Shown here: piece after piece, positions 4,403 to 64,000 of the stretch
Layout of the letters: every line of letters starts with the position of its first letter
Numbering within the stretch: the first letter of the stretch is position 1
Assembly: GCA_002238425.1 (NCBI GenBank)
Contig: MPMJ01000009.1
Location: 20,209-84,208 of the forward strand
Reading direction: 5' to 3'
Length of the DNA: 64,000 nt
DNA from: SAR202 cluster bacterium bin16
GTDB lineage: Bacteria > Chloroflexota > Dehalococcoidia > Lucifugimonadales > Australimonadaceae
Made by a program: the position numbers and the translations under genes
Notes under the pieces: generated by a model
What the model was told of the DNA's origin: nothing
Seen by the model: only the letters and a program-made list of their open reading frames with translations
Databases searched by the model: none

Positions 4403-5512
4403 ATGGTTAACGTCGACGGGGACACGCACTACTGGCCGACCCGGATGCTCGACAGGGTGACGCACCCGGGCAAGGGTGAAGTGCGCATCCACGATGGAGC
4501 AGCCGACTACATCCGCGATGGGAAGGCCATCTGGGAACGCATCCCGGAGAGCCGGTGGAGCCTCGAGAATCGCTACGCCATCATGGACCAGGAGGGCTTC
4601 GACCTCCAGGTCCTGATCCCCGACAACCGACCGCTCCCCTACGAAATGGAACCAGACCTCGGATGCGAACTCGCGATCGCGTACAACGATACGGTTGCGG
4701 AGGACATCGCCGAGTATGACCGCTTCATCGGCGTTGCCTGGGTCTACCTTCCCGACATCGAGGCGTCCGTGCGTGAGGTCCGCCGCACTGTGGAGGAACT
4801 TGGACTGCAGGCCGTGAAGGTCATGGGGGCGTTCGGTGACCTCCACCTCAGCGACAAACGACTGTGGCCCTTCTACGAAGAGGTGGAGCGGCTGGACATC
4901 CCGGTGCTGGTCCACCCGGTGGCCGGCGTCGCTCAGAACCGGTTCTTCGCGACAGATACGCGGGTCGCGAACCGCCCGGACCTCCTGGGCGTCGGGGCCC
5001 TGGGGCTGCCGTTCGAATACATGGCTGAGATCGCACGGCTCGTGTTCAGCGGCGTGTTCGACGAGTTCCCAGCGCTCCGGGTCGGTTTCTTCGAGGGAGG
5101 AGCCGGATGGGTGCCGTTCCTCATGAACCGGCTGGACCACTCGATGTTGCGCGGGCACGAGATAGAGCCGAACCCGAGGCAGACGCTCCATCAGGGGCCA
5201 GAGACTCTGCTGAGGAAACCCAGCGAGTATTTCGAACAGATATACGTGGCCGCCGTCTCCTGGGAGGCGTACCTGCCAGAGATCCTCGCGCTGTGGCCCA
5301 ACCACAACGTCATCATCGGCAGCGACTACGATCACGGGGACGCCATCGCGACGTGGCCGAGGACGATCGAGGGGCTCGACAACATCCCCGGCCTGTCGCC
5401 GGAAGACCGGCGCAAGATCCTGAGCGACAACGCCAGCCGGCTGTTCGGGTTCGACCGCCACCCGGAGCGCTTGCCGTCCGGGCGGGCTCGCACGTCGCCA
5501 ACCCCGGCGTAG
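4403..5512 (+). CDS. amidohydrolase_2 family protein (ACMSD/LigW-like metal-dependent hydrolase/decarboxylase)
   Basis: Track ORF 3311..5512 trimmed to ATG 4403 (GGAAGTGGAGG upstream). C-terminal GSDYDHGD motif. Paralogous to six other amidohydrolases in the window. Confidence 0.85.
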   Translation: MVNVDGDTHYWPTRMLDRVTHPGKGEVRIHDGAADYIRDGKAIWERIPESRWSLENRYAIMDQEGFDLQVLIPDNRPLPYEMEPDLGCELAIAYNDTVAEDIAEYDRFIGVAWVYLPDIEASVREVRRTVEELGLQAVKVMGAFGDLHLSDKRLWPFYEEVERLDIPVLVHPVAGVAQNRFFATDTRVANRPDLLGVGALGLPFEYMAEIARLVFSGVFDEFPALRVGFFEGGAGWVPFLMNRLDHSMLRGHEIEPNPRQTLHQGPETLLRKPSEYFEQIYVAAVSWEAYLPEILALWPNHNVIIGSDYDHGDAIATWPRTIEGLDNIPGLSPEDRRKILSDNASRLFGFDRHPERLPSGRARTSPTPA

Positions 5513-5645
5513 CGTCTCGCGTTCAGGACCCGAGAGATGCTTCTCGGCTCTGCTCAGCATGACACATCCCAGGCCTGACCACTGCAGGGCGCCCATGAAG
5601 GACGCCCCTACAGCAGTCAGCGCCTCCAGTCCCACCGGTTCACCC

Positions 5646-6113
5646 TCACTTCCGCATCAAGTGTGAGACAGACTCCGGCTCCATCCCTTCGAGGGAGCGG
5701 GCGATGCGCGACATGAGCGAGGGGCCATCGCGCTCGTCACCGGTGGGGCCGCCGAAGGTGCGGCGGGGTTTCAGGAGGGGTTCACGCATGGGACAGGCGC
5801 AGGTCTCACCTTGCAACCCCATGAGGTTGGCCTCGGCGTAGCCGTGGACGATGGCAGTGATGACGCGGGTGGGGTCCGGGGTGCGTCTGTTGCGGGCGCA
5901 TTGCTTCAGGTAGGCGTCGATGGGCGCAAAGGCCAGCACCGGGGCGGAAACGCGGATGGCGGCCTCAATGAGATCAAAGACCTCCGGCAAGGGTTCATCC
6001 TGATCCAGGGCCTGCTGCCAGCGGTCTGCGAAGTTCTCGGCGACGGGCAAGAGAGCGGCCTGGGCACGGAGGCAGGCGAGGTAGCGTTCCAGCGTCTTGA
6101 GGCGGGCGGTCAC
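5646..6113 (-). CDS. hypothetical protein, partner gene of HTH cassette copy 1 (GETCxCP motif)
   Basis: 155 aa. Start overlaps the stop of 6110..6562 by 4 nt. About half of aligned residues are identical by hand alignment to 51844..52218 (LERY..C..AQAAL, AYL.QC, GETC.CP). Confidence 0.6.
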   Translation of the reverse strand: MTARLKTLERYLACLRAQAALLPVAENFADRWQQALDQDEPLPEVFDLIEAAIRVSAPVLAFAPIDAYLKQCARNRRTPDPTRVITAIVHGYAEANLMGLQGETCACPMREPLLKPRRTFGGPTGDERDGPSLMSRIARSLEGMEPESVSHLMRK

Positions 6114-6562
6114 CGGGCACCGCGCTGGTTCTTCAGCATGCTGATGGCGTAGTCCATGATGTCGATCCGGTTCCGTATCTCGCTGAGTTCCTTGAGCCTG
6201 AATGCGTTCTGGAGAGCAGTCCGGACTGCGGCGTTCCGGACGTGAGGGTCGGGGCTTTCAAGGAGGTCGGCGAGGGCGATAACGCTCTTCAGGGCGAGGC
6301 CGTTGATCTCGGCGAAAGCGAGGTCGGCCACATGGCGGCGGGCCTGTTCGATCTCGGCACGGAAGTTGGGGTCCTGCATCCACCGGCTGAGGGTGTTGCG
6401 GCCGATGCGGGCGGCCTGCGCGCCCTTGCGCTGCGAAGGGGCTGAGACGATATAAGGGATCGCCAGCATCTGTTTGGGCGTGAGTTGCGCGGGCACGGGC
6501 GGCGCAGCGCCGCCTTCGCTGCTGTCGGGGTCTCGCTGAATCCTGGCTCTATCTTGCACCAT
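6110..6562 (-). CDS. helix-turn-helix protein of HTH cassette copy 1 (terminase-small-subunit-like HTH pattern)
   Basis: 150 aa. The segment AARIGRNTLSRWMQDPNFRAEIEQAR looks like an HTH. 37 of 66 core residues are identical (hand count) to 51446..51847. Confidence 0.65.
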   Translation of the reverse strand: MVQDRARIQRDPDSSEGGAAPPVPAQLTPKQMLAIPYIVSAPSQRKGAQAARIGRNTLSRWMQDPNFRAEIEQARRHVADLAFAEINGLALKSVIALADLLESPDPHVRNAAVRTALQNAFRLKELSEIRNRIDIMDYAISMLKNQRGAR

Positions 6563-6761
6563 TTGGCACCATCCACTCTTGAATTCCGGCGTTCAAGCGG
6601 GGCCACCGCGGGGCCTTCCGGGGCCGTTTCAGGGACGGTCCGAGGGTGAACGGGGCAGGTATGGGGCCACAACGGAGCCACCCCTCCTGCCTCCGTCCAC
6701 GCGGTCCGAGCCGTGGCCCGCCGCGCCGGTCAAAACATCGTAGGGAGGAGTGCGGCGTCCC

Positions 6762-6798
6762 CGCAACGGGCGCGTGTCACAAATGTGACGAGAGGAAG
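6762..6798 (-). promoter_or_regulatory. conserved upstream block with inverted repeat GTCACA-TT-TGTGAC followed by GCCCGTTGCG (cassette copy 1)
   Basis: The reverse complement reads CTTCC..GTCACATTTGTGACA...GCCCGTTGCG, nearly identical to 51314..51346. Flanking sequence is not conserved. Confidence 0.55.
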
Positions 6799-6806
6799 GG
6801 CTGCGA

Positions 6807-6830
6807 GATTCCCGCCTTCGCGGGAATGAC
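6807..6830 (-). repeat. 24-nt REP-like hairpin GTCATTCC-CGCGAAGGCG-GGAATC
   Basis: 8-bp stem ATTCCCGC/GCGGGAAT with a GAAG loop. Same termini as the copies at 49404 and 52239. Confidence 0.7.
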
Positions 6831-6834
6831 GGCG

Positions 6835-7656
6835 TTACCGCGTGGCGGGGCCGCCGTGCTGCTGCTGGCCGAGGCGATTGTAGGTGACCGGGGTGGTAAC
6901 GAGCAGGCCGGCGTCGACGGGCAGGACGACGCCCGTGATCCAGCGGGCCTCGTCGCTGGCGAGGAAGACTGCCGCCCAGCCGATGTCCCATGCGGTGCCC
7001 TCGGTGCCGAGGACGCCCGCCTCGCGCCGGATCTGGCGCAGGTCGTCGTCCATGCGGGGGGCGACCATGGGGGTGTAGACGAGGCCGGGGGCGATGCAGT
7101 TGACGCGGATGCCGTCGCGCCCGTGGTCGCCGGCCATCGACTGCGTGAGGCCGACCACCGCCGCCTTGGACGTGGTGTAGGGCGTGCTGCTGTTGGCGCG
7201 CAGCCCGGCGATGGACGAGAGGGTGATTATGGAGCCACCCCCGCCCTTCTCCATCTCCGGTATGGCGTACTTCGAGGAGAGGACGATGCTCTTGACGTTC
7301 ACCGCCATGATGTGGTCCCACTGCTCCTCAGTGACCTCGGTCACGTCGGCGCGGGTGGAGATGCCGACGTTGTTGTGGAGGATGTCCAGTCGACCGAAAC
7401 GCTCGACCGCCGTCTGCACCATCGCCTCGCAATCGGCGGCGCTCGTCACGTCGGCGGCCATGGCGAACGCAGTGCCGCCCTCGGCCTCGATCAGGCCGAG
7501 GGTCTCCTGGGCGCGATCGAGCTCACGGTCGACGAGCAGCACCTTTGCGCCCTCGCGCGCGAAGAGGATGGAAGCGGCCTTGCCGTTCCCGATCCCCGGG
7601 CCGCTCGAACCGGCCCCCGTAACGATCGCCACTTTGCCTGCGAGCCTGTCTGCCAC
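6835..7656 (-). CDS. SDR family oxidoreductase
   Basis: GKVAIVTGAGSSGPGIGNG cofactor motif. I prefer GTG 7656, with AGGAGGAG 4 nt upstream and 1 nt after the stop of the small ORF. ATG 7689 is the alternative start. Confidence 0.85.
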   Translation of the reverse strand: MADRLAGKVAIVTGAGSSGPGIGNGKAASILFAREGAKVLLVDRELDRAQETLGLIEAEGGTAFAMAADVTSAADCEAMVQTAVERFGRLDILHNNVGISTRADVTEVTEEQWDHIMAVNVKSIVLSSKYAIPEMEKGGGGSIITLSSIAGLRANSSTPYTTSKAAVVGLTQSMAGDHGRDGIRVNCIAPGLVYTPMVAPRMDDDLRQIRREAGVLGTEGTAWDIGWAAVFLASDEARWITGVVLPVDAGLLVTTPVTYNRLGQQQHGGPATR

Positions 7657-7966: not shown

Positions 7967-8209
7967 ATGACGAAGACCATCAATTTCACGATAGACGAAG
8001 GACTACTTGAACGGCTGGACAGTTGCGCGGAGGTACGCTTGCGCGGACGCTCCGCGGTGGTCAGGGAGGCTCTCACCCATTACCTAGACCGGAAGATGAG
8101 CGAGGAGGAGGCCGAGGCAATCCAACGCGCTTATGAACGGGCGTACGGGCCGGGCACGCCACCTGACGAGTTGGAGGACTGGGCGGCGGAAGCAGTGTGG
8201 TTGGAGTAG
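7967..8209 (+). CDS. ribbon-helix-helix (CopG/antitoxin-like) protein, no adjacent toxin
   Basis: 80 aa. N-terminus KTINFTIDEGLLERLD...RGRSAVVREALTHYL is an RHH pattern. The next gene is a convergent Rieske oxygenase. Confidence 0.65.
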   Translation: MTKTINFTIDEGLLERLDSCAEVRLRGRSAVVREALTHYLDRKMSEEEAEAIQRAYERAYGPGTPPDELEDWAAEAVWLE

Positions 8210-14918: not shown

Positions 14919-15944
14919 TTACGCCATCCCGTAGAAGCGCTGCGCGTTCAGCCCGGCGACCTTCGCCCGCTGCTCGGGCGTCATGTCCTCGCGAGCGAGC
15001 AGATGTTGGATGTTCTCCGGGAACTCTGCGTCCCAGTGGGGGAAGTCCGACGCGAACATGATGATGTCCTCACCCAGGATGCGCATCGTCTCCGGCAGCA
15101 TCCGCTCCTCGGCCTCGCAGGAGATGAAGATGTTGCCGGAAGCGAGGTACTCGCTCGGGTACTTCGTCAGCAGCGGCGAGTCCACGTGGCCGCGCAGGTG
15201 GTAGCGCTCGTCCATCCGGTCGAGCATGTACACAGTCCAGCCGCAGCCTGCCTCCAGGAACGCGATCTTCAGGTCAGGGAACTTCTCCGGCACGCCGGAC
15301 AGCATGATGCTCACGAACTGCTTCATCTGCGTGAACGCATGGCCGAGCGAGTGCACCTGCGAGAGGTTGTCGAACAGGAACTCGTCGTAGGAGCCGGTGA
15401 TGCGTCCACTGCCGTGCACGGCGAGCGGCACACCGAGGCGCTGTGCCTCCTGGTAGATGACGTCGAACTGCGGCTTGCCGAACTGGTACGGCCCTTCCGG
15501 CAGCATCCCACCGAGCATGCCGAGCTCTTCGACACAGCGCCGTAGCTCCTGGGCCGCGGCGGGCGGGTCCTGCACGGGCAGCAGCGCAACGCCCTTGAAT
15601 CGCGAGTCCAGTTGGAGGTAAGTGTCGAACAGCCAGTTGTTGTAGGCACGGGAACGCACGATCGCGAAGTCCGGCTCCATGAGCCAGCCCGCGCCGAGGC
15701 TTCCCGTGGGGAAGAGCGCCGATGCCGCAAGTCCGCCGCGGTCCAGCGCATCGAGCCAGACGCCGGTGTCGACCTGGCGGGTGCCGAGGCGGCCACCAAG
15801 TGTGTTGTCGAACCCGTCGCGTGGGGAGTTCGCGCTCAGGCGCGGCCTCTCGTTGTACGGCGCTGGCAGGTACGGGCGTATGTCCTCGTCAGCGTCGCGC
15901 ACGTGCCCGTCCGCGTCGATGCAGAGCGTTGCCGTTGTCGTCAT
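14919..15944 (-). CDS. amidohydrolase_2 family protein
   Basis: N-terminal IDADGHV and C-terminal ASDFPHWD metal-ligand motifs. Lies 2 nt upstream of the SDR gene. Confidence 0.85.
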   Translation of the reverse strand: MTTTATLCIDADGHVRDADEDIRPYLPAPYNERPRLSANSPRDGFDNTLGGRLGTRQVDTGVWLDALDRGGLAASALFPTGSLGAGWLMEPDFAIVRSRAYNNWLFDTYLQLDSRFKGVALLPVQDPPAAAQELRRCVEELGMLGGMLPEGPYQFGKPQFDVIYQEAQRLGVPLAVHGSGRITGSYDEFLFDNLSQVHSLGHAFTQMKQFVSIMLSGVPEKFPDLKIAFLEAGCGWTVYMLDRMDERYHLRGHVDSPLLTKYPSEYLASGNIFISCEAEERMLPETMRILGEDIIMFASDFPHWDAEFPENIQHLLAREDMTPEQRAKVAGLNAQRFYGMA

Positions 15945-28201: not shown

Positions 28202-29323
28202 ATGCCAGGAATCGTCGACGCAGACACCCACATCATCGAACACCCCGGCGTCTGGGAGCACTTCGACGCCGACATGTACGACCGCAGGCCTCTGCTCGCG
28301 TCCATCCCGCTCGACGGCGAGGACGGCCCCCGCGATTTCGTCTGGATGGTCAACGGCACTGCCGTTCCCAAACGCTCCGGCAAGGGCAGCTACGCGGTAG
28401 CCGTCGGCGGTTCCGACTCCGAGAACAACCGCTCCGACATCCGTGCCTCGGTACGCTACATCACCGACCCTCTCGCGCGTGTCGAGGACATGGACAAGCG
28501 CGGCGTCGACTCAGAAGTCGTCTTCCCCACAGTCCTCCTCGCCTACATCACCGACGATGTGGACCTCGAGATCGCCATCTGCCGCAGCTACAACCGCTAC
28601 ATGGCCAACGCCTGGCGCGTGGCGGGCGACCGCATGGCATGGGTCGTCGTACCCCCGCTCCGCGACCTCGAAGCTTCGCTGCAGGAGATCGAGACGGCGC
28701 GCGACAACGGTGCTGTCGGCGTCTTCTTCCGAGGCGTCGAGGGCGACCGCTCGCTCGCGGAGTCGTACTTCTTCCCCATCTACGAGGCGGCGCAGCGGCT
28801 CGGCATGGCCATCAGCATCCACACCGGCGGCGGCTCGCCCGGCATGCTGCAGGTGTTCGACCGAAACGTCTCCCACAACCTGCCGCACGTTCGTTCGCTC
28901 CCGCTGTTCGCGTTCCGCGACCTCGTGGCGCACAAGATACCAGAGCGCTTCCCTGACCTGACGTTCGGCTTCATCGAGGCGTCGGCCTCGTGGGTGCCCT
29001 ACGTCGTTCACCACCTCAGGCGCTCCACCCGGACCTCCGAGCGCGGCATCGGCCGGGCCAACCCCGACTCCGCGCTCGATTTCGGCCCCGCCCTCTTCCG
29101 CGAATACCGGCTCTTCATCGCCGCCGAGACCGACGAAGACATCCCCTACCTCATCAACTACATCGGCGAGGACAACATCATCATGGGGTCGGACTACGGC
29201 CACCAGGACCAGTCGAAGGACAACGGCATGGTCGGCGTCATGCAGCGCCGCGAGGACCTCCCCGCCAGCGTCGTCGAGAAGATCCTCGCCGACAACCCCA
29301 CACGGTACTACGGGCTGGGGTAG
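28202..29323 (+). CDS. amidohydrolase_2 family protein
   Basis: Trimmed to ATG 28202 after AGGAGGGG. VDADTHIIEH and GSDYGHQD motifs. Confidence 0.85.
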   Translation: MPGIVDADTHIIEHPGVWEHFDADMYDRRPLLASIPLDGEDGPRDFVWMVNGTAVPKRSGKGSYAVAVGGSDSENNRSDIRASVRYITDPLARVEDMDKRGVDSEVVFPTVLLAYITDDVDLEIAICRSYNRYMANAWRVAGDRMAWVVVPPLRDLEASLQEIETARDNGAVGVFFRGVEGDRSLAESYFFPIYEAAQRLGMAISIHTGGGSPGMLQVFDRNVSHNLPHVRSLPLFAFRDLVAHKIPERFPDLTFGFIEASASWVPYVVHHLRRSTRTSERGIGRANPDSALDFGPALFREYRLFIAAETDEDIPYLINYIGEDNIIMGSDYGHQDQSKDNGMVGVMQRREDLPASVVEKILADNPTRYYGLG

Positions 29324-29410
29324 GCAGAACAACCCTCATCCCCACAAAGGAGCAGGGGCGCCCGAATGGGCGCCCCTCGTGGTTTCCTATTGCCTGGGCA
29401 GGGTTATGCC

Positions 29411-30424
29411 CTACTCGTCCAGCTTCAGCAGCCTACGCGCGTTCCCCTCGTAGATCTTCTGCTTGTCCTCGATGCTTGCCGTGATGCCGTCCATCACCGC
29501 GAGGGTCGAACGGATGTAGCCGGAGCCCTTTTCCGGGTCGAAGGGCGCGTCCGACGCGAAGAGCACGTGATCGGCGCCGAAGAACGCCAGCCCGCACTCC
29601 GTCGCCGGGACGGAGCCGAACGTAGCCGTGTCGGCGTAGAACATGCGGAAGTAGTCGTATGGGCGCTTGGCCAGCCGCCCGAGCGTGCCTGCCTCGTGGG
29701 GGTCGTCGCTGCGGCGGCCGAGCTGGTCGAGGCCGGGCCCGACGCGCCCCTCGAAGAACGGAACCAGACCGCCAAGGTGGTGCGTGATGATCTTGATGTC
29801 AGGGTGCTTGTCGAACATGCCGGACATCACGATGCGCCCCATCGCGACGCTCGTCTCGTACGGCCAGCCGAATGCCCACCACATGTCGTACCAGGAGCGG
29901 TCCTCCGTCACGTAGTCGGAGAACTCGGCTGAACGCGTCGGGTGCAGCCAGATGGGCAGGTCGAGCTCGGCCATCTTGTCGAACACCGGCGCAAGCTCGG
30001 GGTCGTCGAGCGGGCGGCCGTTCACGTTCGTGAAGATCTGCACGCCCTTCGCGCCGAGCTTGTTGACGGAGCGGTCGATCTCGTCCAGCGAGGCCTGTGT
30101 GTTGTTCATCGGCAGCGCCGCGACGAAACCCGGGAACCGGTCAGGGTGCTGCGAGACGACCTCCGCCATGCCGTCGTTGGCGATCTGCGCGAGCTCCGGG
30201 CTGTCCTCCGGTCCGGCGACCACCTCGACGGGCGGCAGGTTCAGCGAGAACACCTGCTTGTAGTCGTCGCCGAACTGGTCGATCTTCTCGAACCGGGCGT
30301 CGACGTCGTACAGCATCGGGATGGCGGAGACGCGCTTCATCATGTACGCGCCGCCCTCGCTCATGTTGGTCATCGTGTCGAAGTAGGGCTTGGGCAGAAT
30401 GTGATTGAAGATGTCTATCTTCAC
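29411..30424 (-). CDS. amidohydrolase_2 family protein (ACMSD-like decarboxylase subgroup)
   Basis: MKIDIFNHILPKPYF..., WLHP and FASDAPFD are typical of the decarboxylase branch. Confidence 0.85.
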   Translation of the reverse strand: MKIDIFNHILPKPYFDTMTNMSEGGAYMMKRVSAIPMLYDVDARFEKIDQFGDDYKQVFSLNLPPVEVVAGPEDSPELAQIANDGMAEVVSQHPDRFPGFVAALPMNNTQASLDEIDRSVNKLGAKGVQIFTNVNGRPLDDPELAPVFDKMAELDLPIWLHPTRSAEFSDYVTEDRSWYDMWWAFGWPYETSVAMGRIVMSGMFDKHPDIKIITHHLGGLVPFFEGRVGPGLDQLGRRSDDPHEAGTLGRLAKRPYDYFRMFYADTATFGSVPATECGLAFFGADHVLFASDAPFDPEKGSGYIRSTLAVMDGITASIEDKQKIYEGNARRLLKLDE

Positions 30425-44406: not shown

Positions 44407-44425
44407 CGAACGCCAGCCGCGCTGC

Positions 44426-45571
44426 CTACGCGGGCAGGTAGCTCGGGAAGCCGTAGAGCGCGACGCAGTTGTCGTGCACGATCTTCCGCATGTCCTCCTG
44501 CGCCTCTGGTCCGGCGAAGTCGCGCTCGGTGAACTCGCGGGACTTCGGCCACGTGGACGCCGCGTGTGGGTAGTCCGACGACCACATCACGCGGTCGACG
44601 CCGATGTCTCCCCGGTACCGGATCCCCACCTCGTCGTCGATGTAGGTGACGTACACCTGGCGGGCGAAGTACTCCGTCGGCTTCATGCTGAGCGGCGTCG
44701 AGAAGCCGCCTCGCCTGCTCGAACCGGTCCCCACCGTGCCGTTGATCCGGCCGAGCCAGAACGGCACCCAGCCGACGCCGTACTCGGCGGAGATGACGTT
44801 GAGCGTGGGGAACCGCTCCAGCACGCCGGACGCGATGATGACCGCGATCGACTTCTGCACCTCGTGCGCCGCGATGATCGGCCGCAGCACGCGGTTCTCC
44901 CTACCGAACTCGTACCGGGGACGCTCCATGCCCGTCGGCGGGTGGAGGCTGAGGGGCATGCCGAGCTCCTCTGCCTTGTTCCAGAAGACGTCGTACGTGT
45001 CCAGGTGGTACGGCTGGTCCTCGGGCGGCGACGCCCAGATCATCGCGCCGCTCAGGCCCATCTTCGCGCAGCGTTCGAGCTCCTCCGCGCCGAGGTTGGG
45101 GTCGTACAGCGATATCAGGGCCAGTCCCTTCAGCCGGTCGGGCGCGTAGCTGCAGTACTCGGCCAACCAGTCGTTGTAGACGCGGAAGCACTCGCGCTGC
45201 AGCGCCGGGTCCAACAGCCAGAAGAGCCGGAAGCCGAGCGTCGTGTACAGCACTTCGGCAGCCACGCCGTCGACGGCCATGTCCTTCAGCCGCTCCGCCG
45301 GGTCCCACCCGCCGGGGCGAGCATCCGCGTATCCGCCGGTCTTCATGAACTCGACCTTCTCTTCGGCGGTGCGGCTCTGGCCCCCGGCAACCCCGACGGC
45401 GAGGTCGTGGGGCTGGTAGCCCTCGTAGACCCACCATGCTCCCGGGACGCCGTTGTACTCGTCCTCGACGTGCGGCGCGCGATCACGGAACTTCGCGTCC
45501 ATCCGCGTCGTCCACAGGTCCAGCGGCTCGCTCATGTGTGAGTCCGACGATATGTACCACGCATCTACCAT
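44426..45571 (-). CDS. amidohydrolase_2 family protein
   Basis: Trimmed to ATG 45571 after GGGGAGGA. SSDSHMSEP and SSDYPHAAS motifs. Confidence 0.85.
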   Translation of the reverse strand: MVDAWYISSDSHMSEPLDLWTTRMDAKFRDRAPHVEDEYNGVPGAWWVYEGYQPHDLAVGVAGGQSRTAEEKVEFMKTGGYADARPGGWDPAERLKDMAVDGVAAEVLYTTLGFRLFWLLDPALQRECFRVYNDWLAEYCSYAPDRLKGLALISLYDPNLGAEELERCAKMGLSGAMIWASPPEDQPYHLDTYDVFWNKAEELGMPLSLHPPTGMERPRYEFGRENRVLRPIIAAHEVQKSIAVIIASGVLERFPTLNVISAEYGVGWVPFWLGRINGTVGTGSSRRGGFSTPLSMKPTEYFARQVYVTYIDDEVGIRYRGDIGVDRVMWSSDYPHAASTWPKSREFTERDFAGPEAQEDMRKIVHDNCVALYGFPSYLPA

Positions 45572-49481: not shown

Positions 49482-50066
49482 CTACGGCCTTCTCCTGTGC
49501 AACACCGGGTTCTCAGCGTCGTCATCCCAGCGAGCCGGGTTCTCCATGATGTACTGGCGTATGCGGTTCAGGGCGGTTTCGTTCCGTATCACGTGTTCAT
49601 AGTAGTTGCGTTGCCAGAACGAGGCGCCCTGCGTGCCTTGGAGGGCGTTGATACGCCTGGCGGAGAACGTCTTGAAGGCCCTGACGATTTCCGACAATGC
49701 GTGGCGCGGCGCACCCCCGTCCCCGACCCCGGCCCCGGTAGGGGCAGGTTTGAAACCTGCCCCTACCCCTGTCGACGCCTCGCCATCCCCATCGTCCACA
49801 CCGCCTGCGCCTGCGCTCGTCAACACCACGATTCCATGCACGTGATTCGGCATCACCACCCAGGCATCCAACCCTACGTGCGGATAATGGCGCGGCAACT
49901 CCTCCCATACGGCCTGCACGATCCGTCCGGCCTCGCTGAGGCGCATCTCGCCTCCCAGCGCCTGGCCAAGGAGACACTCCCGGTTCCGAATGCACACTGT
50001 CACGACATACGCCCCATCACGGGCATAGTCAAAGCCGCGCAGTCGTATGGAATGCCTCCGGCGCAC
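49482..50066 (-). CDS. REP-associated tyrosine transposase (RAYT, IS200/IS605 Y1 HUH family)
   Basis: (GTG start) RRRHSIRLRGFDYARDGAYVVTVC, the HUH motif MPNHVHGIVV, and the catalytic Tyr region FWQRNYYEHVIRN. Confidence 0.8.
   Translation of the reverse strand: MRRRHSIRLRGFDYARDGAYVVTVCIRNRECLLGQALGGEMRLSEAGRIVQAVWEELPRHYPHVGLDAWVVMPNHVHGIVVLTSAGAGGVDDGDGEASTGVGAGFKPAPTGAGVGDGGAPRHALSEIVRAFKTFSARRINALQGTQGASFWQRNYYEHVIRNETALNRIRQYIMENPARWDDDAENPVLHRRRP
49737..49767. repeat. perfect 31-nt palindrome inside the RAYT coding sequence
   Basis: GGTAGGGGCAGGTTT-G-AAACCTGCCCCTACC has 15-bp arms. It encodes the GAGFKPAPTGAG insert between the HUH and Tyr regions. Confidence 0.8.
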
Positions 50067-50084: not shown

Positions 50085-51300
50085 TCAAAGGGCCAACATT
50101 GTCCTCAGGTAGGGTTAACGAATGGAACGTTCAATGAGCCACGAAAGTACGACTGCAGGTGGGAACTACAGACCACTTTACCAATCTCGCGCTCCTCGTC
50201 ACAGAGCCAAATGATGCATCCCTGTAGCAGGGACTGTGGCGTGCGATTGTCGGGTCTAGTTTCACAATGAACGCAGAACTCCTCGCTATTCACAGGTGGT
50301 TTCTCAGCAATCTTGAACGCTACTTCGCTGTAGTCATAAAGCCTTGAAGCGTCCTTGCCACAATTAGGGCAAGTATTTGCGAGGTAATTGAAAGGGAAAT
50401 AGGAACTGGGCTGCATTCCAAGAGACACGCCTTCTTGTTTGGCAAGGGCAATCTCGTCACTGTTGAATCCTTCGGGGCCGTAAAACCGCAGAAGAGGTGT
50501 ATCAGTCTTCACTACAGATTGTTGAACTATGTGAGCACAGTTTGTGCACTGTTTTTCGAATCTGTACAGGGAGCGTCGCCTTAGGGGTCCATAGCAGCCC
50601 TTGCACTTCGGTCTAGTACACACTGGAATCGATGATGCCGTTGGAGTGAGAGGTGTACCTTTATCAAGGCGTTCCAAGTCATGTACTGTTTCTACTTTAA
50701 ACACAACCAAGTATGCCTCATTCTGGCGAGCGTAATCCCAAACCGGTGCCTCCGGCTCATGCGTCACTACAACCTCAACCAGAACGCGAGGCTTCCGGTA
50801 CCGGTCAAATACTGTGACATCTGGCTGAATCGAGCCCAAAGACTCTTCTAATTCGACTGTCGACGCCAACTCGGTCAGGTTCCCCTGATGAGTATCCTGA
50901 CACTCGCAACATCGCCACCGGAAAGGAATGTCCTCTCCTCGGGAAATAGCATTGCAGATTCTATCGTGCAACAAGCGTTTCCCAAGCTTGTGAAGAAGCG
51001 ACTCCCCGTCGCAGTTCTCTTCTTGAAGATGTGCGAAGTGGTGCACATTAGTGTTACCTTTGCGCGCCACTAGTGTGCCACCGCACTCAGGGCAGACACA
51101 ATGGCATGCCAAACCTCTGGGTACATCACCTATGTGGACAAGGTGTCCATCTTTTTCGCCATATGGAATCTTGAGAGTCATTCAGAAGCACCTACCTCCA
51201 AAGCTTAGCCTGTCTCCATGCTGTGTATCACGGTTGCGATAGTCGCCGTAGCTGTCGTGCCTCCGTCTACGCTCATACAGGATAGCATCGGGTTCAGTGT
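50085..51300. other. low-GC single-gene island
   Basis: Hand counts of 60-nt lines give 24-33 G+C here, versus about 40-42 in flanking genes. Contains only 50105..51181. Confidence 0.7.
50105..51181 (-). CDS. CoiA-like PD-(D/E)xK nuclease-family protein with additional zinc ribbons
   Basis: CPECGGTLVARKGNTNVHHFAH...GESLLHKLGKRLL...IQPDVTVF...VLVEVVVTH parallels the CoiA N-terminal and nuclease motifs. Further CxxC pairs: CCECQ, CTRPKCKGC, CTNC, CPNC, CVHC. Confidence 0.7.
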   Translation of the reverse strand: MTLKIPYGEKDGHLVHIGDVPRGLACHCVCPECGGTLVARKGNTNVHHFAHLQEENCDGESLLHKLGKRLLHDRICNAISRGEDIPFRWRCCECQDTHQGNLTELASTVELEESLGSIQPDVTVFDRYRKPRVLVEVVVTHEPEAPVWDYARQNEAYLVVFKVETVHDLERLDKGTPLTPTASSIPVCTRPKCKGCYGPLRRRSLYRFEKQCTNCAHIVQQSVVKTDTPLLRFYGPEGFNSDEIALAKQEGVSLGMQPSSYFPFNYLANTCPNCGKDASRLYDYSEVAFKIAEKPPVNSEEFCVHCETRPDNRTPQSLLQGCIIWLCDEEREIGKVVCSSHLQSYFRGSLNVPFVNPT

Positions 51301-51313
51301 CCCTCCCTCTCCC

Positions 51314-51346
51314 CTTCCGTCACATTTGTGACATCTGCCCGTTGCG
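51314..51346 (+). promoter_or_regulatory. conserved upstream block with inverted repeat GTCACA-TT-TGTGAC followed by GCCCGTTGCG (cassette copy 2)
   Basis: CTTCCGTCACATTTGTGACATCTGCCCGTTGCG matches the reverse complement of 6762..6798. Confidence 0.55.
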
Positions 51347-51445
51347 CACCCAATCAACCCTTCCCTACCCTGTTCCCAACGGCCCACCCAGCCCGCGCCA
51401 TCGCCGGGATGACGGGCCGATACCACAGAGGAGGAATGGCCAGAA

Positions 51446-51847
51446 ATGGCGCAAAATGGCTCACTTTTCAGAGATGACGCACTCACCCACCGTCAGGCAG
51501 TGGCTCTCCCGCACATCGCGGCCGAATCCAACCTGGAGCGAGCAGCCGAAGCAGCCCAGATAGGCAGGCGGACGCTCACACGGTGGATGAACGACCCCGC
51601 CTTCCGAGCGGAACTTGAGCGCATCAGGCAGAACGTCTCAGACCTCGGTTTCAACGTGGTGGAAGGACTCACCCTCAAGAGCGCTATCCGCCTCGACCAG
51701 CTGCTCGACGACCCGGACCCCAACGTACGACTCCGTGCCCTGAAGGCTGCGCTCTCCATCTCCCTCTCCGTGAAGGAGCAGAAGGAGCTCCGGCGCCGGC
51801 TCGACATGCTGGAGAACACTCAGGTCATGATGAGGCAGCAGCGATGA
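51446..51847 (+). CDS. helix-turn-helix protein of HTH cassette copy 2
   Basis: 133 aa. AAQIGRRTLTRWMNDPAFRAELERIR. Paralog of 6110..6562. Confidence 0.65.
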   Translation: MAQNGSLFRDDALTHRQAVALPHIAAESNLERAAEAAQIGRRTLTRWMNDPAFRAELERIRQNVSDLGFNVVEGLTLKSAIRLDQLLDDPDPNVRLRALKAALSISLSVKEQKELRRRLDMLENTQVMMRQQR

Positions 51848-52218
51848 GGCGCGCTACAAGAGCGCTCGAGCGGTACTACGGCTGTCTGCTGGCGCAGGCG
51901 GCGCTCGACCCCATCGCCGGGGACTACGTCTTGCGCTGGGTGGACGCGATAGAGCGCGGTGAGCACCCGCCGGACCCTACGGACCTCTTCATAGCCGCTG
52001 CAGATGTGCGTGTCCCCGTACTCAGCCCGGAGCCGGTTATGGCGTACCTCAGGCAGTGCTTCAAGACCCAGCGCATCCCGGACGAGACCCGCATCGTGCA
52101 GGCCATCGCCCACGCCTACGCGGAGCGAGACCTGATGAAGGTGGGTGAAACGTGCCACTGCCCGGCGCGGCGTCCGCTCTTCCAGCGGCCCAGGCGCGAT
52201 GGCTTCCGTGGGGACTAG
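51844..52218 (+). CDS. hypothetical protein, partner gene of HTH cassette copy 2 (GETCxCP motif)
   Basis: 124 aa. ATGA overlap with the HTH gene. Paralog of 5646..6113. Confidence 0.6.
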   Translation: MRRATRALERYYGCLLAQAALDPIAGDYVLRWVDAIERGEHPPDPTDLFIAAADVRVPVLSPEPVMAYLRQCFKTQRIPDETRIVQAIAHAYAERDLMKVGETCHCPARRPLFQRPRRDGFRGD

Positions 52219-52262: not shown

Positions 52263-52303
52263 CCGCAGCCCTGGGGGGACGTGGCGAGGGCTGTGTGGGG
52301 CTT

Positions 52304-52339
52304 GTCATTCCGAGCGGAGTGCAGCGGAGCCGAGGAATC
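52304..52339 (+). repeat. 36-nt REP-like element sharing GTCATTCC...GGAATC termini
   Basis: GTCATTCCGAGCGGAGTGCAGCGGAGCCGAGGAATC. Only the 5-bp termini pair; there is an internal GCGGAG direct repeat. Confidence 0.5.
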
Positions 52340-52499
52340 TCTCGGGCCAGGCCCCGTTGTTGGCCAGCGCTCCGTGAGAGGATGCTGCGCGCTGAAGCGC
52401 GGGCTGCGCTCAGCATGACAACCCCCGGGGCGTTGCCCCCTTTCCCGCGACGCGCGTACGATAGCGCCCTCAAACCCGGCCACCCGCAGGAGGACCAAC

Positions 52500-52939: not shown

Positions 52940-54031
52940 ATGGACAGAACGACGTTCCGGGCGATAGACGGCGACGGCCACATCCGCGAACGCGACGCCG
53001 AGATATGGCAGTACCTCGATGAGCCCTACGGCTCGTCCGAGATTACGCTCAACTACCCGTTCTTCCCCTCACTGGACGGCTTCCAGCGAGGCGCGTTCGG
53101 CGCGGCGGCCGGCGCGCACAAGCGCAGGGAGGGCGTCATCGACGTCCCCGCCTGGCAGCGTCTCCTCGACGAGATAGGCCTCGACTACGCCGTCCTCTAC
53201 CCCACCGCCGGGCTGGGCGTCGGCATGATCCAGGACCCGGACTGGGCCACCGCCGTCTGCCGCGGCTACAACAGTTGGCTCGACGCCGTGTACCGGCAGG
53301 TCGACTCCCGCCTCGTCGGCGTCGCGCTGCTCCCGCTGCAGGACGTCGACGCCGCCGTAAAGGAGCTGCGCCGCAGCGTCACCGAGCTCGGCATGGTCGG
53401 CGGCATGCTCCCGGCCAACAGCGCCAACATGGGCGTCCGCAGTCCCCTCGGCGACGAGATGTTCTGGCCGCTCTACGAGGAGGCGCAGCGGCTGAACGTG
53501 CCCCTCGCCGTCCACGGCGCACCGTCGGTCGGCCTCGGCATCGACTTCAACCGCAGCGTCACCTTCGCCAACGTGCTGGAGCACCCGCTCTCCGTCATGA
53601 TCCAGCTCGCCAGCATGTTCCTCGAGGGTGTCTTCGACGAGTTCCCAGACCTCCGCGTCGCCTACCTGGAGGCCAACACCGGGTGGATGCCCTACATGAT
53701 GGACCGCATGTCCGGCAAGAAGCGCCGCGGACGCACCGACTCCGCCGACCTCATGCACAGCGGGCGCGTGCTCGTGAGCGTCGAAGGCGCGGACCCCGGC
53801 CTCCCCTACGCCGTCGACCGCCTCGGCGAGGACGCCATCATCTACGCCACCGACTACCCGCACGAGACGAAGGAGATGGTCGCCGAGGAGCTGGACGAGG
53901 CTCTCGCCCGCACCGACCTCCCGGAGCGCGTGCTCCGCAAGATCTACCGCGACAACGCCGTCCGCCTCTACAACTGGCAGGGCCCCACGCAGGAGGCGGC
54001 CACACAACCCGCGGCCACCGCAAACGCGTAG
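52940..54031 (+). CDS. amidohydrolase_2 family protein
   Basis: IDGDGHIRE and ATDYPHET motifs. AGGAGG upstream. Similar to 14919..15944. Confidence 0.85.
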   Translation: MDRTTFRAIDGDGHIRERDAEIWQYLDEPYGSSEITLNYPFFPSLDGFQRGAFGAAAGAHKRREGVIDVPAWQRLLDEIGLDYAVLYPTAGLGVGMIQDPDWATAVCRGYNSWLDAVYRQVDSRLVGVALLPLQDVDAAVKELRRSVTELGMVGGMLPANSANMGVRSPLGDEMFWPLYEEAQRLNVPLAVHGAPSVGLGIDFNRSVTFANVLEHPLSVMIQLASMFLEGVFDEFPDLRVAYLEANTGWMPYMMDRMSGKKRRGRTDSADLMHSGRVLVSVEGADPGLPYAVDRLGEDAIIYATDYPHETKEMVAEELDEALARTDLPERVLRKIYRDNAVRLYNWQGPTQEAATQPAATANA

Positions 54032-63544: not shown

Positions 63545-64000
63545 TTAGATGCCGTAGAAGCGGCGCGGGTTGTCGTCGATGATCTTGCGCGCCACGCCTT
63601 CGGGAATCTCCCCTTCCGCTTCGCGGCGTTCGATGACGTCGAGCGCGTGCAGTTCGGCGGACTGGTCAGCGTGGGTGTAGTCCGTTCCGATCATCAGGCT
63701 GTCCTCGGTGCCGAACGACAGGATGTACGGAAGGTCGTCGGTGGTGTCGCACGCCACGTAGAAGCGGCAGTTGCGGAAGAGGTCCGAGCGATAGTCGAAC
63801 GGGTGGAACGTCAGTTTCTGTGCCTTGGCTATGAGGTCTGCCATGAGGAAGGGCACCCACGACGCGCCGGTCTCTATCCAGCCGACCCGCAGTTCCGGGA
63901 ACCTGTCGGGAACGTCGCTCATGGCGAGGTCGGTGAATGCGGCGATGGCGTTGAAGCGCCCTCCGATGTCAGCGCCGGAGGTCGGCGGATTGCCCGTGCC
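63545..64000 (-). CDS. amidohydrolase_2 family protein (C-terminal part; 5' end beyond window)
   Basis: The frame stays open to base 64000 (GTGNPPTSGADIGGRF...). WIETGASWVPF and GTDYTHADQ motifs. Confidence 0.8.
   Translation of the reverse strand, partial: GTGNPPTSGADIGGRFNAIAAFTDLAMSDVPDRFPELRVGWIETGASWVPFLMADLIAKAQKLTFHPFDYRSDLFRNCRFYVACDTTDDLPYILSFGTEDSLMIGTDYTHADQSAELHALDVIERREAEGEIPEGVARKIIDDNPRRFYGI

Follow-up and report, generated by a model that had tools for sequence, protein, structure and literature searches.

A conserved two-gene HTH operon in Chloroflexota borders a variable slot for defence genes and may act as a local regulator of its contents

The 64-kb window analysed here, a stretch of the SAR202 cluster bacterium bin16 contig MPMJ01000009.1, contains two copies of a small operon in which a gene for a helix-turn-helix (HTH) protein (A) is followed by a gene for a downstream partner (B), and in which a short palindrome precedes each copy. 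All positions below are numbered along this window unless a comparison locus or contig (L001-L028) is named. The two copies and their upstream elements, with the genes taken from the open reading frame (ORF) listing, are as follows.

6562..6110, minus strand: gene A of copy 1, a 150-aa HTH protein
6113..5646, minus strand: gene B of copy 1, a 155-aa helical protein of an undescribed family
6776..6789, minus strand: palindrome GTCACATTTGTGAC of copy 1, 14 bp with 6-bp arms and a 2-bp centre
6790..6800, minus strand: pyrimidine-rich tract CCCTTCCTCTC of copy 1, directly 5' of the palindrome
6766-6761 and 6742-6737, minus strand: promoter-like pair of copy 1, TTGCGG and TACGAT separated by 18 nt, recognised by conservation only
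6563..6736, minus strand: non-coding leader of copy 1, ~170 nt, with two tandem TGGCYCCRT units (6680-6661) and CCCCGTTCAC
6543..6572, minus strand: phased 10-nt repeats of copy 1, ATGGTGCCAA, ATGGTGCAAG and ATAGAGCCAG, at -10, 0 and +10 of the A start
51446..51847, plus strand: gene A of copy 2, a 133-aa HTH protein (IGRRTLTRWMNDPAF)
51844..52218, plus strand: gene B of copy 2, 124 aa
51307-51318 and 51319-51332, plus strand: pyrimidine tract and palindrome GTCACATTTGTGAC of copy 2
51342-51347 and 51366-51371, plus strand: promoter-like pair of copy 2, TTGCGC and TACCCT separated by 18 nt
51436..51465, plus strand: phased repeats of copy 2, ATGGCCAGAA, ATGGCGCAAA and ATGGCTCACT, over the start codon

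The A and B genes share 4 nt in both copies (GTGA in copy 1, ATGA in copy 2), and the ORF listing confirms the coupling of a 150-aa HTH protein to a 155-aa protein that a sequence-only reading of this DNA had described. The second gene pair that this reading had placed at 51446-52218 is also genuine, as the A proteins of the two copies are 45% identical over 121 aa (E 3e-38) and the B proteins 49% identical over 122 aa (E 4e-36). The same 4-nt coupling is found in the distant pairs L018 and L023, and in L024 the A and B genes do not overlap. Both genes are under purifying selection, with ratios of nonsynonymous to synonymous substitution (dN/dS) of 0.09-0.46 for A and 0.32-0.47 for B. The pair also occurs in other genome contexts: all 13 loci found in the species representatives of GTDB belong to metagenome-assembled genomes (MAGs) of Dehalococcoidia/Chloroflexota, and one complete genome carries two copies. 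It is chromosomal, syntenic and vertically inherited in one lineage, and searches of viral contigs, phage records and plasmids did not turn it up. The neighbours of the pairs are metabolic and defence genes, with no large terminase, capsid or other phage gene close by.

The window contains exactly two occurrences of the 15-nt sequence GTCACATTTGTGACA, one before each pair, at 6789-6775 (minus strand) and 51319-51333 (plus strand), and no further site with up to three mismatches was found there other than reverse reads of the same two. The dedicated palindromic upstream site proposed earlier is thus borne out, and its presence before each of the paralogous operons is not a matter of chance. The end of the palindrome is separated from the A start codon by 213 nt in copy 1 and by 113 nt in copy 2, and the palindrome occupies the same place in 10 of the 13 genome loci; a scan of L005-L017 returned it only before the pair, save for one match with two mismatches elsewhere in L015. 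Conservation outside the genes proved wider than the single ~35-bp block to which it had been confined, since it also takes in the pyrimidine tract, the -35/-10-like pair and three ATGGNNC repeats. The C/T-rich tract 5' of the palindrome is present in all aligned loci, and in every aligned orthologue and paralogue the palindrome is followed by 9 nt, TTGCG(G/C), exactly 18 nt and TAC..T. A scan for the strict sigma-70 consensus did not call the -35/-10-like pair, so its designation as promoter-like is founded on this conservation. The centre of the palindrome lies ~52 bp upstream of the predicted transcription start (near -52), placing the palindrome 5' of the -35-like box and not over the core promoter.

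The start codon of A lies within an array of ATG(G/A)NNC repeats, found at -10, 0 and +10 in 13 of 15 loci, compared with an expectation of 0.1 per 60 nt. The variable dinucleotide of these repeats covaries with residue X of the G-R-X-T-L motif in the recognition helix of A: TGGTGC accompanies N in six loci, TG(G/A)(A/T)GC accompanies A in five, TGGAAC accompanies T in two, and TGGC.C accompanies R. The R pairing is seen in copy 2 and its orthologous contig L027 and again, independently, in L023; the nearest relatives of L023 combine T with TGGAAC. This covariation provides the best, albeit indirect, support for the proposal that A may bind the ATGGNNC repeats. The ATG of the -10 repeat also opens an out-of-frame upstream ORF (uORF) of seven codons (MVPNGAR followed by a stop; 6572-6549, minus strand) that overlaps the A start codon; uORFs of 6-7 codons occur alike in L009 and L023, and L016 has none.

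The leader of the copy 1 orthologues is conserved at the nucleotide level, and indels of 1-2 nt break every reading frame, which indicates that it is non-coding and led us to dismiss the idea of a small coding ORF there. Members of the long-leader group contain two inverted copies of the ATG(G/A)NNC repeat together with CCYCGTTCAC ~100 nt upstream, able to pair with the Shine-Dalgarno/start region, and RNAalifold predicts a long-range helix in the leader. In this helix 95% of cells are paired, as against 34-53% when the partners are slid, with double changes at three pairs, and the duplex energies in the orthologues beat those of dinucleotide shuffles (z -1.5 to -4.9). Rfam matched nothing in the whole window and gave only chance-level hits (E > 0.5) in 6400-6900.

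Besides its recognition helix IGRNTLSRWMQDPNF, protein A of copy 1 has a HEAT-like hairpin (DPDPHVRNAAVRTAL) and a long helix at the C-terminus. It matches the small-terminase family PHROG 2538 weakly (E 2.2e-7 for copy 2, and 2.6e-5) and bears a weak resemblance to PHROG 7344, another small-terminase family. Pfam HEAT, HTH_Tnp_1_2 and HTH_28 matched below their cutoffs, as did Sf6_terminase (E 0.16, 12.5 bits against a cutoff of 27), and Pfam gave no HTH_3/Xre or Sigma70 match. A tblastn search of 50,697 phage records returned matches at 23-28% identity (E 1e-7 to 7e-3) covering 69-87% of A; plasmids gave none by tblastn and PDB sequences none by profile search. Thirty-four clusters of A were recovered in a word-indexed search of 5.8 billion proteins. 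The AlphaFold2 (AF2) model is all-helical with a low mean confidence (pLDDT 61.6), and the Foldseek comparison of this poor model with BFVD was uninformative. The likeness of the HTH region to terminase small subunits, noted in the sequence-only reading, is real, but it is weak, remote, confined to A and below the Pfam cutoff, and A is only distantly akin to small-terminase HTH proteins. Its relatives in the phage database amount to 10 records with unannotated or partly annotated ORFs. Nine of these are streptococcal phage satellites with the ORF near the right end, namely L028 (MK448433.1, 3001-3345) and eight Streptococcus satellite phage 'Javan' genomes, and the remaining one is the unannotated human-faecal bacteriophage record MT837714.1.

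Protein B had gone unrecognised when first read, and it has stayed so: no family match was obtained in Pfam, NCBIfam, PADLOC or PHROG, and its profile matched no PDB sequence. The AF2 model, a helical bundle (pLDDT 73), found no fold neighbour with Foldseek in PDB or BFVD (best E >1). The motifs LERY..C..AQAAL, AYL.QC and GETCxCP ascribed to B are present. None of the viral contigs scanned encodes B, it was not found in phage records, and plasmids gave no match by tblastn. The word-indexed search yielded 15 B clusters, and an exhaustive profile search extended the family to 109 clusters at 50% identity, nearly all from Chloroflexota/Dehalococcoidia MAGs. They share a domain of ~90 aa with the consensus RaLER..A...W..A...P.PD...YL..C...PD..LLP, for which Pfam has no model, and B thus belongs to an undescribed protein family. 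C14, C72, H90, C105 and C107 are invariant across 16 homologues of the close subfamily. B has H90-x14-C105-x-C107 in place of the HxxxCxxC motif of zinc-binding anti-sigma (ZAS) proteins and A has no Sigma70 match, and a ZAS/sigma pair was rejected on these grounds. A distant subfamily of B-like genes (LRRxxxALxRKxA...) occurs solo, with no HTH ORF upstream, at L019 (5001-5354), L021 (5001-5348) and L022 (5001-5348); just 5' of the gene in L019 lies an uncalled 80-aa zinc-ribbon ORF (4602-4844).

The pairs border a slot whose contents vary among genomes. The gene order at the copy 1 locus across genomes is Rieske, ribbon-helix-helix (RHH) or PemK, adh_short, the slot, A-B, amidohydrolase, Rieske and nitroreductase. 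The window is collinear on both sides with L001 (94-96%) and L004 (90-95%), which carry an extra 2.1 kb and 3.2 kb, respectively, between the pyrimidine tract and a repetitive extragenic palindromic (REP) hairpin that follows adh_short; the copy 1 slot in the window is empty.

6807..6830, minus strand: REP-like hairpin GTCATTCCCGCGAAGGCGGGAATC, which follows the adh_short stop codon (6835) and marks the left-hand slot edge

Homology in L001 and L004 resumes ~0-12 bp from the palindrome, and across 15 loci alignability begins abruptly at the C/T-rich tract and CGTCAC. The copy 1 pyrimidine tract was accordingly assigned as the right-hand slot edge, because homology with related genomes breaks there. 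Another small slot with variable content is located at a distance of 1.2 kb (7967-8209, plus strand, in the window; 433-956 in L004), with a lone 80-aa RHH (CopG-like) gene in the window and L001, and a PemK toxin gene plus a 67-aa gene in L004.

Defence genes recur in these slots. GmrSD-type restriction enzymes, identified by full-length PADLOC matches to HEC-05, HEC-06 or Orf5, occupy the slots of L006, L008, L013 and L025, and PD-(D/E)XK nucleases of PDC-S26, a candidate system, those of L009 and L012; the L012 slot also holds a methyltransferase with a zinc ribbon. The gene adjacent to the palindrome in L010 is a look-alike of the L009 nuclease, by resemblance only, and the slots of L005, L007 and L011 hold unknown genes of 234-346 aa. 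Upstream of the L017 pair is a fusion of a methyltransferase with Mrr, and the distant pair L018 faces a SIR2-like gene. The cargo of copy 2 in the window is a putative nuclease gene.

50105..51181, minus strand: copy 2 slot cargo, a CoiA-like zinc-finger protein of 358 aa, putative nuclease (Pfam CoiA_N, E 3.4e-7)

Its GC content is ~0.50, compared with ~0.66 in its surroundings. The orthologous metagenome contig L027 lacks this gene and has 588 bp of unrelated sequence instead (L027 1873-2460), and homology between copy 2 and L027 resumes at 51316, 3 bp before the palindrome. As judged by eye, a protein of ~85 aa whose C-terminal segment is hydrophobic may be encoded in the 588-bp replacement. 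Defence genes thus adjoin the pair at four loci that are not orthologous (the copy 1 group, copy 2, L017 and L018), and such recurrent adjacency to varied defence genes is what characterises defence-island regulators, a class defined by function and not by sequence family. All cargo examined (the copy 1-type slots, copy 2 and L018) lies on the strand opposite the pair and is transcribed away from it, which places the palindrome in a divergent control region. A search for the palindrome at the far end of the cargo did not return a second copy, and no target-site duplication is evident at the slot junctions.

In eight of the 11 copy 1-type loci the cargo operon is closed by a class I S-adenosylmethionine (SAM) methyltransferase of 283-287 aa, packed within a few nt of whichever variable gene precedes it. 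The protein begins RILPERLVENLE..IPHYYT and matches PADLOC mad2 weakly (E 1.2e-11). It is not found in the window, and examples lie at the following positions.

L005 5284-6135, minus strand: 283-287-aa methyltransferase
L006 4276-5127, minus strand: 283-287-aa methyltransferase
L025 5137-6000, plus strand: 283-287-aa methyltransferase

Repeats and metabolic genes also surround the pairs. An IS200-like REP-associated tyrosine transposase (RAYT), identified by eye, lies in the copy 2 slot (49482-50066, minus strand). The REP core TTCCnGCGnAGGCnGGAA has three exact copies in the window, each of them next to one of the pair loci and oriented identically with respect to the pair.

6807-6830, minus strand: REP hairpin with core TTCCnGCGnAGGCnGGAA
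49404-49427, plus strand: REP hairpin with core TTCCnGCGnAGGCnGGAA
52239-52262, plus strand: REP hairpin with core TTCCnGCGnAGGCnGGAA

REPs of the TTCCnGCGnAGGCnGGAA family are multi-copy in related genomes. The idea that the shared REP is part of a duplicated mobile unit was rejected, as the REP flanks differ and REPs are generic intergenic elements. Other REP-like repeats follow both B genes (5530-5611, minus strand; 52295-52420, plus strand), some of them 90-96% identical to related genomes, and fall into the types GTAGGGGCGTCC..GGGCGCCC, GTCATGCTGAGC..GCATCTC and GTCATTCCGAGCGGAG..GGAATCTC. Seven Amidohydro_2 paralogues are spread over the window (4403-5509, 14925-15944, 28490-29317, 29351-30424, 44417-45307, 52940-54031 and 63551-63967), accompanied by Rieske/LigXa-type oxygenases, an abundance that fits what we take to be a SAR202-like expansion of catabolic genes. 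With seven paralogues in 64 kb, adjacency of an amidohydrolase gene to the pair is expected by chance, and it was discarded as a functional clue.

A variable slot for defence genes beside a conserved pair points to a role either in regulation or in docking. Our favoured reading, to which we assign a probability of about 40%, is that A-B is a dedicated, autoregulated module that gates the defence genes in the adjacent slot, and we consider the operon more likely to be a new local regulator of slot genes than a toxin-antitoxin (TA) pair. We observe directly the two genes and their conservation, the cis-elements, the sharp junction and the variable slot with its defence content; which protein binds which element, the sign of regulation and the role of B are what we infer. 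The pair would be a regulatory module specific to this lineage, and would make up the fixed arm of a locus for defence genes in Chloroflexota (Dehalococcoidia-type MAGs). A, with its small-terminase/transposase-type HTH, would bind the phased ATGGNNC repeats over its own start and so autoregulate. Alone or with B, it would probably also bind the palindrome in the divergent intergenic region and, through that site, govern those nuclease or restriction genes that were acquired horizontally and are transcribed away from the pair. Translational coupling would yield B in a fixed ratio to A, and B may be a partner of A or a signal sensor that modulates it; in the close subfamily, the specific set of Cys and His residues suggests a metal or redox site of Cys3-His/Cys4 type through which B might sense. 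In the copy 1 orthologues, the predicted helix of the ~170-nt leader would mask the start codon together with the ribosome-binding site and so bring in control at the level of translation.

Several observations weigh against this regulatory module. The copy 1 slot is empty in the window and yet A and B are intact, so that either the pair acts without cargo or the deletion is recent, and no recognisable defence gene stands beside the pairs L015, L023 and L024. The cargo start codon lies anywhere from ~50 to ~450 nt from the palindrome, so the geometry does not make a shared operator obvious at every locus. The distant pairs L018, L023 and L024 lack the full palindrome, which is limited to the Dehalococcoidia subfamily; L018 and L023 retain only a CGTGAC half-site. 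The correlation between repeat and residue comes from few independent lineages. The leader helix is insignificant (z ~0) in the short-leader paralogues copy 2, L017, L023 and L024, and the single-sequence minimum free energy fold of copy 1 picks another structure (z -1.8). On the side of B, the four-cysteine set does not extend to the whole family, in which C72 alone is kept, and the gene is frameshifted in L008/L025 and L016. The frameshift of L008 (8001-8470) and L025 (2197-1732, reverse strand), two independent assemblies, is a +1 shift after HGYAEAN, and L016 (8001-8440) has a different one after YLKRCAR; beyond the shift the frame is open and conserved at all three loci. These frameshifts could reflect a recent pseudogene, recurrent assembly error or programmed frameshifting.

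Four other explanations were weighed. The TA-like character suggested by the sequence-only reading would make the pair a type II toxin-antitoxin or addiction module, with A as an antitoxin autorepressing through the palindrome and B as a novel toxin, together stabilising the adjacent island. Its architectural part stands: two small genes with a 4-nt overlap, the DNA-binder first and its coupled partner second, and a dedicated inverted repeat upstream, all adjoining horizontally acquired defence genes, a common setting for TA modules. The pair moreover outlasts the loss of cargo at copy 1, and B is frameshifted in two lineages with A intact, as in decaying toxins. The toxin part did not stand, as B matches no toxin family, nor any known family or fold, and B-like genes occur solo without an HTH partner at L019, L021 and L022, albeit in the distant subfamily only. 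Vertical, syntenic inheritance and absence from viral contigs, phage records (for B) and plasmids are also unlike the mobile, multi-copy TA families, the palindrome lies 5' of the -35-like box instead of over the core promoter, and a conserved 170-nt leader with phased repeats is atypical of TA modules; we hold this explanation to be rather improbable. Much the same degree of doubt attaches to a docking or recombination module, in which the pyrimidine tract and palindrome would form an att-like site for cassette capture that A and B recognise or at which they help recombination. Several independent replacements or insertions do end ~0-12 bp from the palindrome at both paralogous loci, and the variable gene of most copy 1-type loci is tightly flanked by the palindrome side and by the conserved terminal methyltransferase gene; the HTH of A weakly matches HTH_Tnp_1_2 and small-terminase families, and a RAYT transposase and REP hairpins adjoin the slots. 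However, selection on the first functional element of a control region could also produce a sharp boundary, neither A nor B contains a recombinase-like catalytic motif or domain that we could find, the far end of the cargo has no second site and the junctions no evident target-site duplication, and with 6-bp arms and a 2-nt centre the palindrome makes a poor hairpin in single-stranded DNA. Bolder still is the notion that the pyrimidine tract, the GTCACAnnTGTGAC palindrome and A/B constitute an integron-like capture-and-control platform with no recognisable integrase, where foreign nuclease or restriction genes would insert at a fixed position by the operator and come under the control of the pair; we regard it as a long shot.

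Alternatively, A and B might be structural or sensing parts of a defence system of several genes that also includes a variable nuclease effector and the 283-aa SAM methyltransferase, copy 1 in the window being a remnant. A conserved core with swappable nuclease effectors is a common pattern in defence, and the recurrence of the same 283-287-aa methyltransferase at the end of the cargo operon in eight of 11 copy 1-type loci, with its weak match to mad2 of the methylation-associated defence system, accords with this. Yet GmrSD and PDC-S26 genes match PADLOC models over their full length and count as stand-alone defence genes, known or candidate, the methyltransferase is missing from copy 2, L013, L017 and L018, the copy 1 pair is intact without any cargo, and the elaborate cis-elements around the A start point to gene regulation, all of which makes such a system doubtful, if marginally less so than the toxin or docking explanations. 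Finally, the pair could be an ordinary lineage-specific regulator of something else, for example of neighbouring catabolic genes, that flanks a recombination hot spot by chance. It does lie in conserved synteny amid Rieske, adh_short, amidohydrolase and nitroreductase genes, an Amidohydro_2 gene is near copy 1, copy 2, L023 and L024, and three loci have no recognisable defence neighbour; but seven Amidohydro_2 paralogues in 64 kb make the Amidohydro_2 adjacency expected by chance, defence-like neighbours occur at four non-orthologous loci and always on the palindrome side, and chance hardly explains the precision of the junctions at two paralogous loci. We consider an unrelated regulator unlikely, though it deserves to be taken more seriously than the preceding explanations.

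If A-B is indeed a local regulator of the slot genes, the locus would bear on how horizontally acquired nucleases are silenced or poised, which is poorly understood beyond model Proteobacteria and Firmicutes. It would offer a compact and apparently dedicated control module in uncultured Chloroflexota with a new protein family (B), a possible specificity code linking one HTH residue to a repeat dinucleotide, and a natural series of genomes with swapped cassettes and near base-precise junctions. If the precision of these junctions reflects mechanism and not selection, it would represent a new way of capturing defence genes at a fixed chromosomal site.

Comparison with known systems places the pair in no described family. 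Type II TA modules resemble it in their small overlapping genes, DNA-binder first, with an inverted repeat upstream and proximity to mobile or defence DNA, and differ in that B has no toxin homology and solo B-like genes, the pair is inherited vertically, its leader is long and conserved and the operator is off the core promoter. The likeness to small terminase (TerS) proteins lies in the weak matches of A to PHROG 2538 and 7344 and to Streptococcus satellite phage proteins; pac sites lie within terS genes, and the repeat array at the start of the A gene recalls them. In contrast to TerS, A-B is a syntenic chromosomal pair with no phage genes nearby, B is without viral relatives and the Pfam terminase match is far below its cutoff.

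The controller (C) proteins of restriction-modification (R-M) systems are small HTH proteins with a palindromic site near their own gene that time the expression of an adjacent nuclease after horizontal transfer. They are Xre-type, ~80-100 aa long and usually co-oriented with the nuclease gene, with C-boxes directly over their own promoter. A shares with them the small size, the HTH, a palindromic site near its own gene and an adjacent nuclease gene. Membership was rejected, since A has 133-150 aa, a terminase-type HTH with a HEAT-like tail and no HTH_3/Xre match, and is divergent from its cargo on the opposite strand, with the palindrome 5' of the -35-like box. In CapH/CapP of cyclic-oligonucleotide-based anti-phage signalling systems (CBASS) and in the WYL-type BrxR/CapW regulators, an HTH repressor, sometimes with a co-encoded signal-sensing partner, stands divergent from diverse defence systems. 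A-B has a similar layout, an HTH gene with a partner beside and divergent from diverse defence genes. It was nonetheless set apart from both, since B has no HExxH metallopeptidase motif in its sequence, neither protein contains a CapP or WYL domain by Pfam, NCBIfam or PADLOC, and PADLOC models match neither A nor B.

RptR of enteropathogenic E. coli, a small repressor that binds repeats in the promoter of a defence island, exemplifies an established class of small repressors dedicated to such islands (PMC12255303). No sequence relationship to A or B was detected, RptR serves one type I R-M system whereas the cargo here is highly variable, and the regulator gene here is coupled to a second novel protein and divergent from the cargo, with predicted binding repeats that overlap its own start codon. 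The two have in common a small DNA-binding protein at the edge of a defence island, here predicted from sequence, and short palindromic or direct-repeat sites in the promoter, likewise predicted here, that are conserved together with the regulator (PMC12255303). By kind, the A-B pair is closest to such defence-island regulators.

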